Shown here: positions 1 through 55,132 of the stretch, piece by piece | How the letters are laid out: each line of letters begins with the position of its first letter | How positions within the stretch are numbered: the stretch's first letter is position 1 | Source of the DNA: an uncultured Bacteroidales bacterium | GTDB taxonomy: Bacteria > Bacteroidota > Bacteroidia > Bacteroidales > VadinHA17 | Direction of reading: 5' to 3' | DNA length: 64,000 nucleotides | Assembly: GCA_963725785.1 (NCBI GenBank) | Contig: CAVRZV010000011.1 | Span: 165,956 to 229,955, forward strand | Made by a program: the position numbers and the translations under genes | Notes under the pieces: model-generated | Told to the model about the DNA's origin: nothing | Seen by the model: the letters and a program-made list of their open reading frames with translations, nothing else | Database searches by the model: none

Positions 1-3000
1 AGTATAAATACTACAGGACTTGTGACAGCTATTTCAAATGGAACCGTTACGGCAGTTGCTACTGCTTCTGACGCTTCGGGAGTTACTGGTACATTTGCTA
101 TTACTATTAACACCAATTTAATTCCGGTTAGTTATATAACTGTTTTGGGAGCCGGTGGTATCTCTACTATTACCTCAAACCAAGGATCACTTCAGTTAAG
201 TGAAAGTGTATCACCAGCAAATGCAACTGATAATACTGTAATGTGGACCCTCATTAATGGTACCGGACGAGCTACTATCAATTCTTCTGGTCTTGTTACC
301 GCTATTGACAATGGGACAGTAACTGCCAGGGCAACGGCTAATGATGGCTCAGGTATTTTTGGAAATCTTATTATTACTATTTCCAATCAGACCATATTGG
401 TGACAAGTATTAATATCAGCGGATCAGGAGGAGCAACTTCCATAACTACTGATGACGGAACTCTTCAACTTATAGCAACTGTGTTACCCGCAGATGCTGA
501 TATAAATTCTGTGACATGGTCAATAGTCAATGGGACCGGACAGGCTACAATTAGTTCCGGGGGCCTTGTTACTGCCATTGATAACGGAACTGTCCTGGCT
601 GCTGCAACAGCTAATGATGGCTCAGGTGTTTACGGGAGCATGGTTCTTAACCTTTATAACCAGATAATACATGTAACTAATATTTCTGTAAGCGGAACTG
701 GAGGAGTAACTACTATATCTTCTGATAACGGAACTCTTCAGCTTAGTGCAGCAGTATTGCCTGTGAATTCTACTGATAATTCTGTGATATGGTCAATAGT
801 TAACTCAACCGGACATGCTATAATCAGTTCTACAGGTCTCGTGACCGCCATCGACAATGGTACGGTCACGGCCATAGCAACGGCAAATGATGGTTCAGGA
901 ATATCAGGAACCCTTGATATTATTATTTCCAATCAATTGGTGCCGGTAACTGCAATTACCGTCAGAGGAGCAGGAAGCGCAACTACAATCACTACTGATA
1001 ACGGATCGCTTCAATTGAGTGCAGAGTTATTGCCTGTAAATGCTACGGATCAATCGGTAACATGGTCATTGATAAGTGGTACTTCACTTGCCGGCATCAG
1101 TACTACCGGACTGGTGACTGCTATTGATAACGGCACAATTACAGCCCGGGCAACTGCTAATGATGGATCTGGTGTTTATGGCACTCTTGTAATTACTATT
1201 ACCAATCAGATTATTTCTGTTACCGGTATAACTGTTACCGGGTCAGGCGGCAGAACAACAATTACAAATGATAACGGAACACTTCAGCTGTTTGCATCAG
1301 TGGTGCCATCCAATGCAAGTAATAAAGCAGTAACATGGTCGATTGTGAGTGGCGTCGGACTGGCTTCAATAAATTCAAGCGGGCGCGTAACAGCTCTTGA
1401 TAACGGATCCGTTACAGCCAGAGCGACAGCCAGAGACGGCTCCGGTGTTTCCGGAAACCTCATAATTACTATTTCCAATCAAATAATACCAGTGACTTCA
1501 ATAACTGTTACCGGTGCCGGTGGTGGAACTACAATCTCAACCGATAACGGGTCTCTTCAGTTAACTGCAGCAGTGTTGCCTGTCAATTCTACAGATAAAG
1601 CTTATACATGGTCAATAGTAAATGGAACAGGACACGCTACAATTAATTCCACTGGTCTGGTAACAGCTTCGGATAATGGTATTGTTACTGCCAGGGCTAC
1701 TGCAAATGATGGCTCAGGCATTCATGGTGACCTGTTAATAACTATTTCAAACCAGATTGTTCCCGTAACAGGTATCTCGATTACAGGATCAGGAGGGGCA
1801 ACCATTATCGCTACAAATGATGGCACGCTTCAGCTTAGTGCAGTAGTAATACCGGCTAACGCGACGGATAAAACTGTGACCTGGTCTTTGACAAATGGCA
1901 ACGGGCAGGCTGTCATCAATTCCACAGGACTTGTTTCCGCAATTGATAATGGTACCGTTACAGCAACTGCCACAGCTAACGATGGATCAGGAGTATATGC
2001 CTCACTGATAATAGATATATTTAACCAGGTAATACCGGTAACCGGCATTACTGTTACCGGTTCAGGCGGAGTATCTGCCATTAATGTCAATAATGGAACA
2101 CTTCAGATGAGTGCAACGGTTTTGCCGGCAAATGCAAGTGATAAAACCATAACATGGACTTTGGTAAATGGAACTGGCCTGGCTATTCTTAATGCTTCCG
2201 GTTTTATAACAGCAATCAATAATGGATCTGTTACAGTCAGGGCATCAGCTAATGATGGATCTGGCGTCTTTGGAGACAGGGTAATCAATATTTCGAATCA
2301 GATAGGACCTGTAACGTCAATCACTGTATCAGGAGCAGGTGGCGAGACTTCCATTACCACTAATAAGGGATCTCTTCAGCTTAGTGCCGCGGTATTCCCT
2401 GCGAATACTGCTATTCAAACTGTTTCGTGGTCATTTGTCAGTGGCACAGGACTGGCTACCATAAATGCAACTGGTCTTTTATCAGCAATTGATAATGGAA
2501 CTGTTACAGTCAGAGCAACAGCTAATGATGGTTCAGGTGTTTATGGTACCATTGTTATCACAATTTCCAACCAGATAATTCAGGTAACAGGTATAAGTGT
2601 TACCAGTGCAGGTGGAACTAACTATATCGCAACTGATAATGGAACCCTTCAACTAACTGCTGCTGTATTTCCGGCAAGTGCCGCAAATAAATCAGTGACA
2701 TGGTCCATAATCCCGGGTTCCGGACAAGCCACTGTAAGTAACACTGGCCTTGTCACGGCTGTTGACAATGGTACTGTCACGGCAATGGCTACTGCAAATG
2801 ACGGATCGGGAGTTTATGGTGCCATGGGCATCTATATTTCTGCACAGATAACACCTGTATCGGCCATCAGTGTCAGGGGAGCAGACGGGACAACAGCTAT
2901 AACTGATGCTAATGTTTCCCTGCAGTTAATTGCAACTGTTATGCCGGAAAATGCCACAGTCAGCAGTGTTACATGGTCGTTAGTAAAAGGCAGGGAACTG

Positions 3001-3354
3001 GCTGCTATCGATTCTACCGGGCTGGTCACGGCTTTTAATAACGGTACTGTTACGGTTAAGGCTGCAGCCAATGATGGATCAGGAGTGTACGGATCAATCG
3101 TTATTCCAATATTTATAGAAGATTTCGATCTAACCTTTTCGGCTGTTACACGTGATGAATTAAAAATAAAACTAAACAATAACTATATATCCTGGAAAGC
3201 CGGGCTGTATAGTATTCAGGGTAGTTTGTTACTTAGCAAGCTTGTCAATAGTGATGTACTTGTTTTTGATATCTCATCACTTCATTCAGGTTTATATATT
3301 GTCGTTTTATCAAAAGGGAAAAATATAAGAATGGCAAAAGTAATTAAACCATAA
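1..3354 (+). CDS. Large Ig-like (Big_2-type) repeat surface protein with C-terminal T9SS sorting domain; 5' end lies outside the window
   Basis: Frame 1 is open from base 1 (SINTTGLVTA...). About 12 repeats of ~91 aa (273 bp), each containing VTWS...GLVTAIDNGTVTAxATANDGSG. The C-terminus (LYSIQG...FDISSLHSGLYIVVL...KVIKP) resembles a T9SS type A CTD. Confidence 0.85.
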   Translation, partial: SINTTGLVTAISNGTVTAVATASDASGVTGTFAITINTNLIPVSYITVLGAGGISTITSNQGSLQLSESVSPANATDNTVMWTLINGTGRATINSSGLVTAIDNGTVTARATANDGSGIFGNLIITISNQTILVTSINISGSGGATSITTDDGTLQLIATVLPADADINSVTWSIVNGTGQATISSGGLVTAIDNGTVLAAATANDGSGVYGSMVLNLYNQIIHVTNISVSGTGGVTTISSDNGTLQLSAAVLPVNSTDNSVIWSIVNSTGHAIISSTGLVTAIDNGTVTAIATANDGSGISGTLDIIISNQLVPVTAITVRGAGSATTITTDNGSLQLSAELLPVNATDQSVTWSLISGTSLAGISTTGLVTAIDNGTITARATANDGSGVYGTLVITITNQIISVTGITVTGSGGRTTITNDNGTLQLFASVVPSNASNKAVTWSIVSGVGLASINSSGRVTALDNGSVTARATARDGSGVSGNLIITISNQIIPVTSITVTGAGGGTTISTDNGSLQLTAAVLPVNSTDKAYTWSIVNGTGHATINSTGLVTASDNGIVTARATANDGSGIHGDLLITISNQIVPVTGISITGSGGATIIATNDGTLQLSAVVIPANATDKTVTWSLTNGNGQAVINSTGLVSAIDNGTVTATATANDGSGVYASLIIDIFNQVIPVTGITVTGSGGVSAINVNNGTLQMSATVLPANASDKTITWTLVNGTGLAILNASGFITAINNGSVTVRASANDGSGVFGDRVINISNQIGPVTSITVSGAGGETSITTNKGSLQLSAAVFPANTAIQTVSWSFVSGTGLATINATGLLSAIDNGTVTVRATANDGSGVYGTIVITISNQIIQVTGISVTSAGGTNYIATDNGTLQLTAAVFPASAANKSVTWSIIPGSGQATVSNTGLVTAVDNGTVTAMATANDGSGVYGAMGIYISAQITPVSAISVRGADGTTAITDANVSLQLIATVMPENATVSSVTWSLVKGRELAAIDSTGLVTAFNNGTVTVKAAANDGSGVYGSIVIPIFIEDFDLTFSAVTRDELKIKLNNNYISWKAGLYSIQGSLLLSKLVNSDVLVFDISSLHSGLYIVVLSKGKNIRMAKVIKP

Positions 3355-30406: not shown

Positions 30407-30480
30407 TGATTCCGGAGCGACTCGAACGCTCGACCCACAGCTTAGAAGGCTGTTGCTCTATCCAACTGAGCTACGGAACC
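30407..30480 (-). tRNA. tRNA-Arg (anticodon TCT)
   Basis: GGTTCCG/CGGAATC acceptor stem, TAGCTCAGTTGGATAGAGC D arm, ACAGC-CTTCTAA-GCTGT anticodon arm, GTTCGAGT T loop. TATTTTTG promoter box at 30493-30500. Confidence 0.96.
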
Positions 30481-30626: not shown

Positions 30627-32402
30627 TCATCTTGTTTTCATATAGTTAACGAGTCCTTTCCTGTCAATAATCTGTTTTAGTTTTTCAGGAAGCGGCTCGA
30701 AAGAAAATGTTGATGATCCGATCATTATCTCTCCTTTCTCGAAGTTAATATCAACCTGATCACCTGGCTTATAAGCTTCGGCGGCTTCCCTGTGAACTAC
30801 AAGCAGCAAACCCTGGTTTATAGAAGAACGATAAAATATCCTGTTCACAGATTTGACTATTATGGCTTTGATACCAATGTATGAAAGTCCGACAGACGGA
30901 TGCTCCCTGGAGCTGCCACAACCAAAATTGTCACCTGCTATAATAATATCATCCTTCATTACATTTTTGCTGAATCCCGGATCAAAATCCGCAAAGAGCA
31001 GTGGTGTTATGGCGGCAGGATCGGTGCTTAAAATATTATAGGTATGTTTCCCGGCAAACATCTGATCGGTATTCAGATTATCTACATCGGTATAATTCCA
31101 GACTGAACCGACTCTTCTGTTTTCACCGGATTTAATTTCGAAAGTCCTGCTTTGTGAAATTTTATATGGAAACTTTTCTTTTCCTGCATACATTCTTGGA
31201 TCTGTGATAACCCCTGTCAGCGATGAATGTGCCACTGTTGCAGGTGATGCCAGATAAATCTGAGCTTCCTTATTCCCCATTCTGCCCAAAAAATTCCGGT
31301 TAGCTGTGGAAATAACTACATGTCCGTTAGCAGGGATCCCCTGACCTGTACCCAGACAAGGTCCGCACGATGGAGTAAGAACATTTGCTCCTGCTTCAAT
31401 AAATATCGAAATCAGACCCTCCTCGATAGCCTGGAGGAATATCTTTCTTGAGGCCGGAATTATGTTCAGCTGAAAACTATCCTTAATAGTTTTACCCGCC
31501 AGAATCGCAGCAGCAATCCGCATATCTTCGATCCTTCCATTTGTACAGGTACCAAGAAGTCCCTCGTGAACAACAGTCCCGGCAACTTCAGCAACCGATT
31601 TAATATTATCTACATTATGCGGAGCTGCAATGACCGGGAATATTTCGTTCAGGTCAATATTGATCTCACTAAAATATTTTGCTCCGTCGTCTGCCCATAT
31701 TCCTGGTATTTTTTCGCCATAAAATTTATCCAGGACTTCATCAGCAGGAAAGACTGCATTTTTTGCACCCATTTCAGAGGCAAGGTTAGCAATTGTCATT
31801 CGATCGGAAATATCAAGCGTTCTGACGCCCTCTCCATGGTACTCTATCGACATATAGTTTGCACCGTCCGATCCGATCATTCCAATAATCCATAATGCCA
31901 GATCCTTTGCCGAAACATTTTCGTTTAGCCTGCCTGAAAGAGATATTCTGATTGATTCAGGTACCCGGAACCAGGTCTCTCCTCTTTTCCATATGCCGGC
32001 TGATTCGGTCCGGTCTATTCCGGCAGCCAGGGAGTTGAAAGCTCCTGCAGTTGAAGTATGACTATCGCTGCCGACGATAAGCATTCCGGGACGGGCATGA
32101 TACGACATTATCTGATGACATATTCCTTTCCCGGCATCATAGAATTTTTTTATTCCCTGCTTTTCGACAATATCCCTGATTTCCTGATACTGTGTTGCTA
32201 GTTTTGCATCAGCGGGAGGAGCATTATGGTCAAGAACAACAAGCATCTGGTCGGGATTGGCAACATTCATACCTCCCATCTTCTGAAACGTCTTATAGAT
32301 ACTAAATGTATTGTCATGAGTCAGAATTATATCGGGCCTGGCAAAAACGATCGCCCCGGCAGGAGCTTTGAATATCTTTTCAGCAAATGTTTGTGAAGAC
32401 AT
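30627..32402 (-). CDS. Aconitase-family hydratase, fused large (LeuC/HacA-like) and small (LeuD/HacB-like) subunits, copy 1
   Basis: LTHDN, LDHNAP, GICHQ, GSDSHT, GTCTNGR, SCGPCLG, STANRNFLGRMG; then NLNTDQM and NFGCGSSREH. Confidence 0.9.
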   Translation of the reverse strand: MSSQTFAEKIFKAPAGAIVFARPDIILTHDNTFSIYKTFQKMGGMNVANPDQMLVVLDHNAPPADAKLATQYQEIRDIVEKQGIKKFYDAGKGICHQIMSYHARPGMLIVGSDSHTSTAGAFNSLAAGIDRTESAGIWKRGETWFRVPESIRISLSGRLNENVSAKDLALWIIGMIGSDGANYMSIEYHGEGVRTLDISDRMTIANLASEMGAKNAVFPADEVLDKFYGEKIPGIWADDGAKYFSEINIDLNEIFPVIAAPHNVDNIKSVAEVAGTVVHEGLLGTCTNGRIEDMRIAAAILAGKTIKDSFQLNIIPASRKIFLQAIEEGLISIFIEAGANVLTPSCGPCLGTGQGIPANGHVVISTANRNFLGRMGNKEAQIYLASPATVAHSSLTGVITDPRMYAGKEKFPYKISQSRTFEIKSGENRRVGSVWNYTDVDNLNTDQMFAGKHTYNILSTDPAAITPLLFADFDPGFSKNVMKDDIIIAGDNFGCGSSREHPSVGLSYIGIKAIIVKSVNRIFYRSSINQGLLLVVHREAAEAYKPGDQVDINFEKGEIMIGSSTFSFEPLPEKLKQIIDRKGLVNYMKTR

Positions 32403-32541: not shown

Positions 32542-32718
32542 CAGGGAGATTCCTCGCTGACGCTCGGAATGACATGGTATTTAGGTGGTTACTGGGGTGA
32601 AGAAGTGGCGATTCGAACGCCTATTATGTAGGAAAATGCGTCTGCGAATCGCCACTTCTTCACCCCATCACAGACCCCAAACACGCTGTCATCCCGAGCG
32701 TTAGCGAGGGATCTCCTG
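32542..32718. repeat. Nested palindromic element, copy 1 (REP/CGTC-like outer arms, GGGGTGAAGAAGTGGCGATTCG inner arms)
   Basis: Outer ~30-bp imperfect inverted repeat, perfect 22-bp inner inverted repeat, small central hairpins. Homologous to 54915..55086. Confidence 0.85.
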
Positions 32719-32844: not shown

Positions 32845-34662
32845 TTATTTACCCAGTAAACCACCATTCTGGTAAACCTCGAACTGAACATCTGAAAATG
32901 GTTCTGCATGTACAATTAATTTATTAATGAGATTTTCAATTTCTCCTGTTTTCAGATTAACTCTGATATGGTCTCCATTTTTCAGTTCAAGTGCGGATAT
33001 TGTTTTGCAGCTTATGATCGGAAATGCGGCATTTATTGCGTTCCTTTCGTAAATAGAACCAAAAGAATCAGCAATAATAGCCTGTATTCCAAGGGCTGCG
33101 AAACAATCTACGGCCTGTTGTCTGGAGCTTCCGCACCCGAAGTTTTTTCCTGTTACAACAATATCTCCTGGTTCAGCTAACCTCGAAAAATCTTCAAATC
33201 CACTCAGGTTATCAAAAGTATACCGGCCCATCTCCTTTATATCTGTAATTGCAAGATAACGGTTATGGAAAATCATATCTGTGTCAATATTATCTTTTGG
33301 TATAAGCCAGATTTTTCCTTCAATCACAGATCCTTTCACAAAGGATGCCTTTTCATGATTACTCCTCACTTTTGCTTCTTCAAGTCTTTTGGGTTTTATA
33401 AATAATGAAGGTTTTTCGGGTATTTTGTCAGCTGTAGTAATATAACCAGCAACAGCGGATGCTGCCACTGTTTCAGGAGAAGCAAGATAAACGCTGCCCT
33501 TACCCTGTTTCCCGGGAAAATTTCTGTTTCCTGTACTTATTGTTACTTCTCCCGCACCGTTTTGTCCGACCTGACCGGCAGCGCACCCGGCGCAACCTGC
33601 ATTGGAAACAAGAGCACCTGCCTTCTTAAAAATATCAATAAGACCTTCAGTAAGGCATTGTTTCCAGATTTCATCGGTAGCCGGAACAATTTTAAGAACC
33701 ACTCCCGGCGCAACTTTCCTGTTTTTCAGGATAGCCGCAGCCATATTCATGTCATTCATCCTGCCATTGGTGCAGCTTCCAATAAATGCCGAATCAATTT
33801 TAATACCGGGAATTTGTGAAACATTCACCGTATCGTGTGGTTTTCCTGGAAGTGAAACCATTGGCTGAAAATCATTCACATTAATTGTAAAAGTTTTCTC
33901 ATAGGTTGCAGTAGTATCAGCAAAAATTGGTTGAAAACTCTTTTTAGAACGTTTTGTACAATAATCTATGATTTCTTTCGATGGAGGAAACAGAATTATT
34001 ATTGCTCCCATTTCAGTTGCCATTGAGGAAATAGTTATCCTGTCGTCGATATCAAGATCGTCAACCACAGGGCCATAGATCTCAATTGAATAACCAAGGA
34101 GTGTATTTGCTCCGAATGTTTTAAGGAGGTTGAGAATAATGTCTTTTGAACTGATATTATCAGGAATTTTTCCTTCAAAATTTATTTTTACCGATGGTGG
34201 TATTTTGAACCAGACTTTTCCGTTATGCCAGGCTGCAGCAATATCCATATCGCCCATCCCCTGGCCAAATGCACCGATGGCACCCAGAATATTAGCATGT
34301 GAATCAGTAGATACAGCAGTGGAGCCCGGGTAAACATATCCCTTATCCAACAATATATGAGTACCGATTCCGGCATCAATATCATACACTTTAATTCCCT
34401 GTTCCCGTGCATACAGGCGGCATGTGTGCTGGTTTACGGCATATTTCTGATCAGAACCGGTAGGATTACAATCGAATGTGAATAAAGTTTTACCGGGGTC
34501 ATTTATTGTTAAACCAAAATCAATAAGATTCTTAACCACATTTGCGCCTCCAAAATCACGAGCAACCCTGGTATCGATCTCAATGTCTACAATTTGACCC
34601 GGACGTACAGTATCATGTTTTGAATGAGCTGCGAGTATTTTTTCAAGCAATGTCATTGCCAT
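32845..34662 (-). CDS. Aconitase-family hydratase, fused large and small subunits, copy 2
   Basis: ARDFGG, TFDCNP, GIGTH, STDSHA, GSCTNGR, GCAGCAAG, STGNRNFPGKQG; then NIDTDMI and NFGCGSSRQQA. Confidence 0.9.
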   Translation of the reverse strand: MAMTLLEKILAAHSKHDTVRPGQIVDIEIDTRVARDFGGANVVKNLIDFGLTINDPGKTLFTFDCNPTGSDQKYAVNQHTCRLYAREQGIKVYDIDAGIGTHILLDKGYVYPGSTAVSTDSHANILGAIGAFGQGMGDMDIAAAWHNGKVWFKIPPSVKINFEGKIPDNISSKDIILNLLKTFGANTLLGYSIEIYGPVVDDLDIDDRITISSMATEMGAIIILFPPSKEIIDYCTKRSKKSFQPIFADTTATYEKTFTINVNDFQPMVSLPGKPHDTVNVSQIPGIKIDSAFIGSCTNGRMNDMNMAAAILKNRKVAPGVVLKIVPATDEIWKQCLTEGLIDIFKKAGALVSNAGCAGCAAGQVGQNGAGEVTISTGNRNFPGKQGKGSVYLASPETVAASAVAGYITTADKIPEKPSLFIKPKRLEEAKVRSNHEKASFVKGSVIEGKIWLIPKDNIDTDMIFHNRYLAITDIKEMGRYTFDNLSGFEDFSRLAEPGDIVVTGKNFGCGSSRQQAVDCFAALGIQAIIADSFGSIYERNAINAAFPIISCKTISALELKNGDHIRVNLKTGEIENLINKLIVHAEPFSDVQFEVYQNGGLLGK

Positions 34663-46854: not shown

Positions 46855-46951
46855 TTTATATGATAACCATTATCAGGGCTGACAGGAGTGTAAGTAAGGA
46901 ATCATTCAATGATCCGGCGCTTTTCTTCCCGAAAGCTGTGAATATGGTTTT

Positions 46952-47140
46952 GTCTGGCAGGTCTTCTGACTTATCCCGGTTTTGTGAAGCCTTCCCATAA
47001 CCTTAAATTGTCACAGTGGCAGGTATTCACAAAACCATAATCGTTAGAACGATCGGGCATCACAGCAGCGGGTACTGTTGCGGATTCAAACCGCATTCCC
47101 TTTTCATTACAATGATTTAATTTCATTGTAACACCAAAAC
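46952..47140 (-). ncRNA. Cobalamin riboswitch
   Basis: Minus strand reads AAAAGGGAATGCGGTTTGAATCCGCAACAGTACCCGCTGCTGT...GCCACTG...GGGAAGGC...AAGTCAGAAGACCTGCC, the B12-box consensus, upstream of a TonB receptor. Confidence 0.93.
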
Positions 47141-47216
47141 ATTACAAAGATAAAAGTTATTTTTATTCTGAAATAGTTTGACCCCAGTCAGATATCAACA
47201 TTTATTAACAACTATT

Positions 47217-52146: not shown

Positions 52147-54350
52147 TTAATCATCCAGCCCTGACTGGTCGATCATTCTGACTTTTTCCTCAAGTGTTTT
52201 TATCAGTTTTTTTGCGCTTTCGATTTTGTCTTCCACCTCTCTGATCATGGTATCAGCGTTGGTAGATTTTGCAAAAAAACCAATATTATTCTCCCACAAA
52301 ACTATGTCACTTTCAAGCTGTTTAATCTTTGTAAAAAACTTATCACGCTCATTTCTGACTTTTCTTGAAGCTTTAGGATTTGCTTTAAGATTGTCAAGTT
52401 TAGTTTTATATTTAAGGATACTTTTGTCCTCATCACCAATTTTCAGTTTATCAAACTCTTTATTAATGGCTGCCCGATATTTATTGGTGATTTCATCTTT
52501 CATATTAAACGGAACAAAACCAATCTCAGTCCATTTCCTCTGCAATTCTTTCAGGCGTTCGAAAGCAGATTGAACATCAGTTCCCGGTTCAAATTTCTCA
52601 AGTTCATCAATGATGGAGAGTTTTGCTTTCAGATTATCTTCGTAAGATGTATCGAGTGCGGTAAAAAACTCTGTCTTCCTGTTAAAAAAATGATCACATG
52701 CTTTGCGGAATCTCTTCCAGCATCTTTCCGATTGTTTCCTGGGAACGGGACCAATTTCTTTCCACTCTTTCTGCAGTTTTATCAGAGCATCGGAAGTAGC
52801 TTTCCAGTCTGTGCTTTCCTGAAGACTCTCAGCCTGGATACATAATTCCGTCTTCAGCTGCAGGTTATTCATCTGAATCTCTTTATTGTCTGCATAGAAA
52901 CCACGCTTCTTCTCAAAAAAAGTATCACATGCGTCTCTGAATCTCTGATAAACCCTGTTATTTTGCTTTTTAGGAGCAAATCCAATTGTACGCCACATTT
53001 TCTGTAACTCAACTACCTTATCTGCCCTTTCATCAAATTCTTTGAAGTTTTTAATTTCCAGCAGGTTTATGGCATCTACCTCTTCACACAGAGCTATTTT
53101 AGCATCAAGGTTTTTTCTCTGATCGTCTTTCTGTTTTTCAAAGTACTCATGATGTCTTTTGTTTATTTGAGAGGTAGCTTCCTTAAATCTCTCCCAGATC
53201 TCATTTTTTGATTCCTGTGGAACAGGGCCTATCTCGCGCCACTGGTTATGAAAATCCTGTAAAAATCTGAAGGCGTTGACCGGATTTGGTTCGAGAAGGA
53301 GTTCTTCTGCCTTTTCGCATAACAAAACTTTTGCCTCAAAATTCTTTTTAAGGTCAAGGTCTCTCAGCTCTTTATTTATTTTAATATAATCATAGAAAAT
53401 TTCCACATAATGATGATAATTCTCCCAAAGATCTTTCAGCGAAGTCTGAGGCACCACGCCAATAGAATGCCATTCATTCTGAAGCGCTCTGAAGTCATGA
53501 AATGTCTTATTTATTGATTCTTCCCTGTTTACCAGATCTTTGATTTTATCTATTATGTCATACTTTTTTTTCAGGTTTTCATATTTTTCAGCTTCCTGAA
53601 TTTTATTATAGTCGGTTTTTTTCTCTCTGTATTTTTCGAGCAGGTGTTTTACGCGGGCATCTTCAGGGTCAACCCATTGCCTGTACTCCTCAATTTTGCC
53701 TCCACCTTCAAGAAACTTGGCTTTCCTCTCTTCAGCTTCACTCTTTAATTTCTTATAGAAGTGTATTTTTAAGCGTTCAACATCATCCCTGATCTCAACA
53801 GTAGGCCTGTTTTCAATAATCAGAGCCAGTGTCTCAACAAGTTCATGCTTTGAATAACCGGAATAATCAACCTGCGGCAGCTCAATATTTTCAGACTCAT
53901 CAGCTTCCGCAATCACAGGTTCTTCCTTAACCTCCTCAACTACAGGTTCTTCCTTAACCTCCTCAACTATAGGTTCTTCCTTAACCTCCTCAACTATAGG
54001 TTCTTCCTTAACCTCCTCAACTACAGGTTCTTCCTTAACCTCCTCAACTACAGGTTCTTCCTTAACCTCCTCAACACAGGTTCTTCCTTAACCTCCTCAA
54101 CTACAGGTTCTTCCTTAACCTCCTCAACTACAGGTTCTTCCTTAACCTCCTCAATCACAGGTGTCTCATCCGGCTTAAGCCCTTCATTTTCGGTTATTGT
54201 CTCTGTATTAATTTCAGGATCTCCTGCGTCACCAGGAGATTCAAGTTCTTGCGCGTTGTCCGCTTGTGTGGCATCCTCAGTTCCGGTGGCGTTTTCGATA
54301 GCCCCGGATTGTTCTTTACGAACAGAGTCATCCGGATTTTTCTTGGTCAT
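52147..54350 (-). CDS. DUF349 domain protein with acidic N-terminal repeat tract; frame broken in the tract
   Basis: Repeated WRxIGxVP...W.RF...CD.FF units. The N-terminal ORF (54048..54350) joins via the VEEVKEEPV repeats. Confidence 0.85.
53915..54156 (-). repeat. 27-bp tandem repeat, 9 units, encoding VEEVKEEPV
   Basis: Unit ACAGGTTCTTCCTTAACCTCCTCAACT on the + strand; unit 6 (54050-54075) is 26 bp and shifts the frame. Confidence 0.92.
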
Positions 54351-54824: not shown

Positions 54825-54914
54825 ATAGAAGGAATACTTAACTTTTGTGGGCTCACATTCTACCTGGTATTTGACAGTCTGTAATGGAATAATGGAACTT
54901 TCAGACAGTAGAAC

Positions 54915-55086
54915 AGGAGATCCTTCGCTTCGCTCAGGATGACAGCATTGTTGATGAACACATGGGGTGAAAAAGTGGCGATTCGTACCACTAATCTATC
55001 AATTAGATTTATCTACGAATCGCCACTTTTTCACTCCAATAACACCCTAATTATCTTGTCATCCTGAGCGAAGCGAAGGATCTCCT
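54915..55086. repeat. Nested palindromic element, copy 2
   Basis: Perfect 30-bp outer inverted repeat AGGAGATCCTTCGCTTCGCTCAGGATGACA; inner arms GGGGTGAAAAAGTGGCGATTCGTA / TACGAATCGCCACTTTTTCACTCC. Confidence 0.88.
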
Positions 55087-55132
55087 ACTCACATCATTAG
55101 CAAACTCTCATTTAAAGTATTCTGTTAATAAT

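Follow-up and report, generated by a model that had tools for sequence, protein, structure and literature searches.

The repeats that most resemble the element described here are the CGTC-tagged REPs and the hairpin targets of the Ssn nucleases. A CGTC-tagged REP has an unpaired CGTC tag, of which TGTC and CCTC variants are allowed, at one end of a short palindrome. The stem is 8-9 bp long with A-T complementarity at the first two positions, the loop has 4-5 nt and a short 3' tail follows (Di Nocera et al. 2013, PMC3733652). Most CGTC-tagged REPs are head-to-head dimers, heterodimers included, and their spacers of 20-100 bp can hold stem-loops. The superfamily has been reported in Bacteroidetes with no link to a dedicated transposase or to a RAYT (PMC3733652). 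In Neisseria, the single-strand nuclease SsnA cleaves the NTS repeat (NTS/dRS3), CGTCATTCCCGCG..GCGGGAATC. Cleavage is governed by the three bases that precede the palindrome, and binding depends chiefly on the C that follows it (Chenal et al. 2025, PMC11893778). Binding of these hairpins by Ssn enzymes is confined to single-stranded DNA, and the cut is made a few bases upstream, while the reverse strand, duplex DNA and RNA are ignored (PMC11893778).

REPINs, which are mobilised by RAYTs, are comparable in architecture. In both REPINs and the present element, two REP hairpins in inverted order make up a larger fold-back structure, and many gene-less copies accompany a few gene copies flanked by repeats. 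The present element differs in its partner, a GIY-YIG nuclease rather than a Y1 (HUH) transposase, in its tag, TGTC rather than GTAG, and in that Ssn enzymes have no known transposition chemistry. The Neisseria intergenic mosaic elements (NIMEs) are repeat units bounded by inverted dRS3 repeats. NIMEs and the Bacteroidales element are alike in that short units are bracketed by inverted hairpins of the same class, but NIMEs are arrays of varied units whereas the Bacteroidales element is a single unit with one defined hairpin spacer.

The element was found as a nested palindrome in a 64,000-nt stretch of DNA, called the window below, which corresponds to positions 165956-229955 of contig C11 of an uncultured Bacteroidales genome (G000). 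This genome is a MAG of 3.85 Mb in 19 contigs and is 90% complete. The element is probably an Ssn-associated REP dimer with a lineage-specific hairpin spacer. The repeat class and its link to the enzyme are already published; the new part is the fixed three-hairpin unit in Bacteroidales. The literature searched contained no description of a three-hairpin unit with a long covarying inner stem in this order, and a search on the arm sequence returned no relevant paper.

Two copies of the nested palindrome in the window

Both copies in the window are intergenic and are separated by 22,370 bp. Each has outer arms of 30 nt, linkers, an inner stem of 23-25 bp and a loop that varies between the copies. 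The coordinates and the pairing agree with the preliminary description, which had reported two intergenic copies of the same nested design 22 kb apart. The parts of the two copies are as follows (bit scores are those of the covariance model R1, which was built from nine copies).

32545..32716, + strand: copy 1, whole nested element, 172 bases; best strand +, 160.5 bits
32545..32574, - strand: copy 1 left arm; the bottom strand is TGTCATTCCGAGCGTCAGCGAGGAATCTCC, with the TGTC tag, self-pairing ATTCC/GGAAT and then C; a REP hairpin resembling the Ssn-related motif (SRM)
32575..32592, + strand: copy 1 left linker, TGGTATTTAGGTGGTTAC, with the TTAGGTGGTTA motif of many copies
32593..32615, + strand: copy 1 inner stem, 5' arm, purine-rich, TGGGGTGAAGAAGTGGCGATTCG
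32616..32644, + strand: copy 1 variable loop, 29 nt, with a small internal hairpin
32645..32667, + strand: copy 1 inner stem, 3' arm, CGAATCGCCACTTCTTCACCCCA; pairs 23/23 with 32593-32615
32668..32686, + strand: copy 1 right linker, C-rich then A-rich, directly 5' of the right-arm hairpin
32687..32716, + strand: copy 1 right arm, TGTCATCCCGAGCGTTAGCGAGGGATCTCC, with a self-pairing ATCCC/GGGAT stem; within-arm compensation relative to the left arm
54825..55132, no strand: lineage-specific spacer of about 300-305 bp around copy 2; the site is empty in four congeners
54915..55086, - strand: copy 2, whole nested element; 170.3 bits on the - strand
54915..54944, - strand: copy 2 arm; the bottom strand is TGTCATCCTGAGCGAAGCGAAGGATCTCC
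54963..54987, + strand: copy 2 inner stem arm, TGGGGTGAAAAAGTGGCGATTCGTA
55014..55038, + strand: copy 2 inner stem arm, TACGAATCGCCACTTTTTCACTCCA; 24/25 paired
55039..55056, - strand: copy 2 conserved linker; the reverse complement is AGATAATTAGGGTGTTAT
55057..55086, + strand: copy 2 arm, TGTCATCCTGAGCGAAGCGAAGGATCTCC

The outer arms match each other at 27 of 30 positions in copy 1 and at all 30 in copy 2; a shuffle control for the arm gave 0 matches in 100 shuffles. The differences between the copies are compensated within each of them, GAAGAAG/CTTCTTC in one being replaced by GAAAAAG/CTTTTTC in the other, and the arm centres behave in the same way. Both sets of exchanges had been pointed out before and were found again. 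Folded as single-stranded DNA, copy 1 reaches -62 to -63 kcal/mol on either strand (z = -12 to -13 against shuffles).

Asymmetry of the linkers and the loop gives the element an orientation. The TTAGGTGGTTA motif of the left linker, being recurrent in many copies, defines this orientation, and a TGGTAATTAGGTGGTTAC-like linker recurs on one side of the element only. Copy 2 has the opposite orientation to copy 1 (R1 gives it 170.3 bits on the - strand and 147.0 on the + strand). On the bottom strand, the left linker of copy 1 lies directly 5' of the left-arm hairpin. Read toward their TGTC hairpins, the two linkers have in common a weak profile that is C-rich and then A-rich.

Several other features of the window were recorded. 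Copy 1 lies between two genes of about 600 aa each, 30627-32402 and 32845-34662, both on the - strand, and in most congeners this gene pair is separated by only 19-66 bp. Ten tandem copies of a 27-nt unit, GGTTCTTCCTTAACCTCCTCAACTACA, occupy positions 53860-54189, where long minus-strand ORFs break off, and probably specify a peptide repeat of 9 residues. Twelve diverged tandem repeats with a period of 273 nt and 60-73% identity are present at 4-3086; they probably encode a run of about 91-aa domains in a large surface protein. An Rfam scan of the window detected a cobalamin riboswitch at 46939-47154 (- strand, 96 bits) and a tRNA gene at 30407-30480 (- strand).

Pairing in the outer arms and the inner hairpin

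Read from its inner end, an arm consists of TGTC, ATYCY, GA, a short stem-loop (typically GC-GAA-GC), GA, RGRAT, C and a short tail; GAGCGAAGCGA is the core of the hairpin. The TGTC-ATYCY...RGRAT-C arrangement is present in both arms of copies 1 and 2 and in at least 60 related elements. All arms have the tag followed by the palindrome, as in the TGTC variant of the CGTC-tagged REPs, and nearly every arm in G000 belongs to a head-to-head pair. The outer arms had been likened to CGTC-class REP palindromes, and the tag, the AT-starting stem and the head-to-head dimers bear this out. The AT stems, the short unpaired tail, the heterodimers and the structured spacers are likewise common to the two groups (PMC3733652). 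Three properties set the Bacteroidales element apart from the published class. The stem, which starts AT..AT, is composed of 5 bp, a tandem G.A step and 2 bp around a GAA-type loop of 3-4 nt rather than of a plain 8-9-bp helix, and it is followed by a CTCC or CTCA tail, not CCA. One arm, usually the right one, often has an extra hairpin inserted between its two G.A steps. The spacer hairpin is much longer, and its structure is conserved across the genus and neighbouring families.

The arms also have the bases on which cleavage and binding of the SRM repeats depend in Neisseria, namely GTC directly 5' of an AT-starting palindrome and C directly 3' of it (PMC11893778). The published degenerate SRM pattern, HGTCWYN(0-2)YYVSBRHN(0-5)WNVSBRGN(0-2)RNCYNB, nevertheless has only 7 matches in G000, of which 1 is an arm (about 40 arms are present), and the arms of copies 1 and 2 are not among them. 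The pattern misses the arms because of the tandem G.A step in the Bacteroidales stem. A further difference from the SRM repeats is that the arms occur here nearly always as head-to-head pairs around a spacer of about 115 nt with a perfect hairpin of 19-26 bp.

Pairing statistics were collected from 46 parsed elements. The 5-bp arm stem is Watson-Crick in 96% of cells when paired within an arm and in 87% when paired between arms. In at least 17 elements, the arms are unlike each other and each is internally compensated, with ATTCC/GGAAT on one side and ATCCC/GGGAT or ATCCT/AGGAT on the other; copy 1 belongs to this group. The outer arms are therefore better described as two self-folding hairpins forming a head-to-head dimer than as one long outer stem. 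Of the outer layout proposed earlier, the paired arms stand and the single long stem does not.

Three nested elements of G000 (C7:165152, C16:335481 and C10:396647) have an insertion of a module of about 28 nt, ATTACCTTCGGTGAGCTCGCATTCCGCTCGG, at the same position in one of their outer arms (GGAGAT^TCC). The first half of the module, AATTACCTTCGGTGAGCTCGG, recurs about nine times in the gene clusters C6:6127-26219 and C10:290469-301001 within a longer conserved context.

The inner hairpin was surveyed in 71 elements from at least 12 genomes. The spacer holds a long perfect stem in all of them, commonly of 19-26 bp and with a purine-rich 5' arm, and the sequence of this stem differs widely between copies. 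In the alignment to the model, every one of the 22 pairs of the inner stem has undergone double changes, with 96.9% of cells paired; shuffled and slid controls came nowhere near this pairing. Double changes were counted at 39 of 48 pairs, and no shuffle reached the observed covariation values. The earlier suggestion that structure is conserved over sequence is well founded. All four Watson-Crick pair types occur at many positions of the inner stem, and G.T accounts for about 0.5%. Covariation with almost no G.T points to DNA rather than RNA, and the pattern fits either pairing that is read at the DNA level or arms that are copied from each other. An RNA helix, in which G.U would be tolerated, is at odds with it.

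In pairs of closely related copies, the differences are found in the loops and linkers. The elements L153 and L158 differ at 16 positions, none of which is among the 48 stem bases (P about 0.0003). The stems of the close pairs contain two compensated changes, one of them G>T with C>A in the C18 copy, and about six uncompensated ones.

The preliminary description had left the choice between a REPIN- or MITE-like non-autonomous element and a structured RNA family. A non-coding RNA, either an sRNA or a cis-regulatory element, whose helices are maintained by selection for RNA pairing would account for the strong covariation (the double changes at 39 of 48 pairs), for the very stable fold and for the intergenic position of all copies. 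However, the inner helix is almost devoid of G.U in spite of hundreds of double changes, transversions included, and the two strands fold equally well. The copies are found in both orientations with respect to their neighbours, between convergent, tandem and divergent genes, and no T-run terminator follows the hairpin. The Rfam scan of the whole window gave no family for the element at gathering thresholds; a search of the element at E values up to 10 produced generic hairpin noise, the best sub-threshold hits being models of microRNA-precursor hairpins with 27 bits where 79-90 are required. In addition, the arm hairpins flank a gene for a DNA nuclease in many phyla and the module rides inside a MITE, as described below. 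The RNA part of the earlier proposal is thus very unlikely to be correct, and the REPIN-like, non-autonomous part stands.

Copy number, distribution and probable gain of the element

The genome was searched with R1 and with sequence patterns. The model gave 42 matches over both strands, which correspond to about 21 elements, and the two kinds of search together place about 21-24 elements in G000, considerably more than the two copies first noticed. All are intergenic, with tandem, convergent or divergent neighbours, and they have three forms. The first comprises eight intact solo elements like the pair in the window, as well as one decayed and one truncated copy. The second, with four copies, has the same arms and an inner hairpin closed by a 3-5-nt loop. 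In the third, the module lies inside a MITE-like element of about 410 bp, of which at least eight near-identical copies are present.

The 410-bp element (C16:241492-241902 and at least seven other sites) has 23-bp terminal inverted repeats, CTAATCT..CATCACATCTTTTT, which begin CTAATCT and end AGATTAG. Each outer arm of the module nested in it is enlarged by an extra hairpin of about 45 nt. A separate repeat of about 115 bp, with about 25 copies in the genome, adjoins the 410-bp element. One short copy of this carrier (C11:24680-24911) has a single hairpin in place of the whole module, which is the expected outcome of a deletion between direct half-arm repeats.

The family was found in 16 of 25 genomes sampled from the genus, with 0-25 copies in each genome of the sample, and in 6 of 16 other families sampled from the order. 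A phylum-wide search with the model, which used a thin sample, scored 11 candidates per genome and had low sensitivity, detected almost no elements. The intergenic location, the multiple copies and the patchy occurrence among species are properties of the SRM repeats as well (PMC11893778).

Comparison with congeners revealed orthologous sites that lack the element. The site of copy 2 is empty in G007, G010, G016 and G020, as judged from the convergent stop codons, which are 8-10 bp apart in these four genomes (76-79% gene identity). The extra DNA at copy 2 amounts to about 300 bp and thus exceeds the 172-bp element; the added flanks are not repeated elsewhere. At the site of copy 1, G001, G008, G009 and G010 have spacers of 19-181 bp with no element, and G007 has the element with compensated stem differences. 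The intergenic DNA at this site is too diverged for more than presence or absence and spacer length to be read from it. The copies were probably gained at their present sites during the history of the genus.

The ends of the element were compared for signs of transposition. No target-site duplication and no target motif were found in 61 aligned element ends. Similarity among the solo copies of a single genome is no higher than 72-80%, and signs of a recent burst are confined to modules carried by larger repeats. The divergence of the solo copies and the lack of a target-site duplication mean that there is no sign of recent autonomous movement of the solo form. These data bear on the reading of the element as an ordinary MITE, in which the 30-bp outer arms would be terminal inverted repeats for a DDE transposase. 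The inverted termini, the many copies and the patchy distribution are in keeping with it, as is the variant inside the 410-bp element, which has terminal repeats of its own and near-identical copies. A MITE of this kind is most unlikely, however: besides the 61 ends with neither duplication nor target motif and the old, diverged solo copies, the arms are often unlike each other and each is still self-complementary, and no transposase gene with these ends was found, whereas full elements adjoin a gene for a GIY-YIG nuclease of about 100 aa.

The adjoining GIY-YIG gene and the proposed mode of action

This gene, designated type B, directly adjoins full nested elements in congeners. Its conserved residues are YYVYILTN..VLYTGVTN.LERR..EH...KYNVDKLVYFE...REKQIKGYSR.KK. 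Five type-B genes of congeners have a full element within 130-270 bp: that of G008:C22 has one on each side, and those of G020:C87, G007:C182, G008:C8 and G016:C36 have one each. A scan of public genomes with the type-B alignment returned 80 loci. In the best 16 Bacteroidia loci among these, an element is present 35-800 bp from the gene in 14-16 cases, in several of them on both sides; adjacency by chance is expected for about 1% of genes at 25 elements per 4 Mb. Type-B homologues in Alphaproteobacteria, Planctomycetota, Bacillota, Chloroflexota, Nitrospirota, Cyanobacteria and Deferribacter are also flanked by head-to-head dimers, which have the same GTCAT...GAGCGAAGCGA...ATC core and spacers of only 6-20 nt.

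The type-B proteins are single-domain proteins of 102-110 aa, within the size range of the Ssn family cd10448 (single-domain GIY-YIG, about 94-110 aa), and Pfam PF01541 covers residues 6-78 in five of five members. Searches of NCBIfam and the PDB gave only weak GIY-YIG or UPF0213 matches, the nearest solved structures being UPF0213. By its sequence, type B appears to be a small Ssn-like GIY-YIG nuclease. The SRM repeats resemble the present ones in flanking a single-domain GIY-YIG gene of about 100 aa, often on both sides (PMC11893778). This arrangement, with the Ssn-like type B as the gene, is present in congeners and in other Bacteroidia but not in G000, and the window's genome differs from the Neisseria system in having the repeats without the matching gene type. 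No type-B gene was found in the 90% complete MAG, and its copies therefore look non-autonomous. None of its own small GIY-YIG genes adjoins an element; the three that are present lie in tRNA arrays or are accompanied by a different hairpin type (ATTGC/GCAAT).

These other GIY-YIG genes have features of their own. A type-A paralogue at C7:22821, possibly frameshifted, has its own hairpins with ATTGC/GCAAT stems, in about six copies. Small GIY-YIG genes of 81-95 aa are located within tRNA gene arrays at C3:15594-16745 and C11:77818-78630, with tandem partial tRNA copies before the gene and another tRNA-like fragment after it, an arrangement that looks like a nuclease cassette targeting tRNA genes. 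At C9:200187-200900, a high-GC stretch with a uvrC-like GIY-YIG fragment passes without transition into low-GC sequence; this part of the MAG is probably chimeric or a contaminant.

A linked RAYT or GIY-YIG gene had been named beforehand as the partner to look for. The GIY-YIG gene was found, in congeners; the RAYT was not, as the only RAYT of G000 has different REPs. The idea that the element is a REPIN mobilised by a RAYT draws on this one Y1 transposase gene (C13:34283-34755), which has a short-loop element about 300 bp upstream. The gene is frameshifted, though, and has arrays of a different REP (GGAACNNCTCCGNNGTTC) on either side, the CGTC class as a whole is not linked to RAYTs (PMC3733652), and in other genomes the elements adjoin GIY-YIG genes and not Y1 genes, which makes mobilisation by a RAYT exceedingly improbable. 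The region of this gene (C13:33700-35000) has three copies of CAGAACCGCGGAGCGGTTC upstream and about six of TGGAACACCTCCGGTGTTC downstream.

The explanation that we consider likely is that the nested palindrome acts as DNA: a pair of TGTC REP hairpins with a hairpin spacer of about 115 nt would be the target of an Ssn-type nuclease, the gene-less copies being non-autonomous. Two head-to-head hairpins of the CGTC-REP class, to which the Neisseria dRS3/NTS and SRM hairpins also belong in kind, enclose the spacer, which itself folds into a long perfect hairpin with purine/pyrimidine asymmetry. By analogy with the published enzyme, either strand, once single-stranded, would present one correctly oriented hairpin (GTC, palindrome, C) at its 3' side, preceded by the long inner hairpin and an A-rich linker predicted to be unpaired. 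The arm hairpin would be recognised and bound by a small Ssn-type nuclease with a single GIY-YIG domain, which would nick the linker a few bases upstream, so that the expected cut would fall within the unpaired A-rich linker, held between the inner and the arm hairpins. The inner hairpin may help to extrude or to hold the structure. The gene-less copies of G000 would be related to the gene-bearing cassette but non-autonomous, much as REPINs are with respect to their RAYT, and the hairpins would be kept either by selection for pairing in DNA or by correction of one arm by the other.

A more far-reaching proposal, which we regard as unlikely though worth stating, is that the unit [nested element]-ssn-[nested element] is an autonomous mobile element whose sole protein is the single-strand GIY-YIG nuclease of about 100 aa. 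The palindromes that lack the gene would be non-autonomous descendants of this element and would correspond to REPINs, but with a non-HUH enzyme. Nicks 5' of each TGTC hairpin, on opposite strands, would bracket the spacer, and copying would pass through a folded single strand. Such a route would account for the perfect, strictly Watson-Crick pairing of the inner stems in spite of their divergent sequences.

The element could also be a DNA signal recruited by the host, such as a signal that restricts the uptake or recombination of single-stranded DNA, the role proposed for the Neisseria NTS; it would then be kept by the host and not be selfish. Old solo copies do keep perfect stems, the changes between close copies avoid them (0 of 16 in stem bases for L153 and L158), and the Neisseria repeats modulate transformation. 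Against this, the family is absent from 9 of the 25 congeners and its copy number varies from 0 to 25, its positions are not conserved and the cognate type of nuclease is missing from the window's genome. We give host recruitment a very low probability. It does not exclude the explanation in terms of an Ssn-type nuclease target, since it concerns the use of the repeats.

Before the description of the Ssn nucleases in 2025, no enzyme was known to partner the CGTC-class REPs. The findings described here extend the pairing of REP and Ssn to uncultured Bacteroidales of soil and peat, in which the target hairpins are parts of a fixed three-hairpin unit and not single hairpins. For annotation, they explain a recurrent intergenic palindrome that could be misread as a terminator or an RNA gene. 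Each strand of the unit has one oriented predicted nuclease site, beside an unpaired linker between two stable hairpins, and the unit is a ready-made substrate for asking whether Ssn enzymes act on cruciforms extruded from double-stranded DNA. It is equally suited to the question of whether these enzymes drive the spread of their own repeats.
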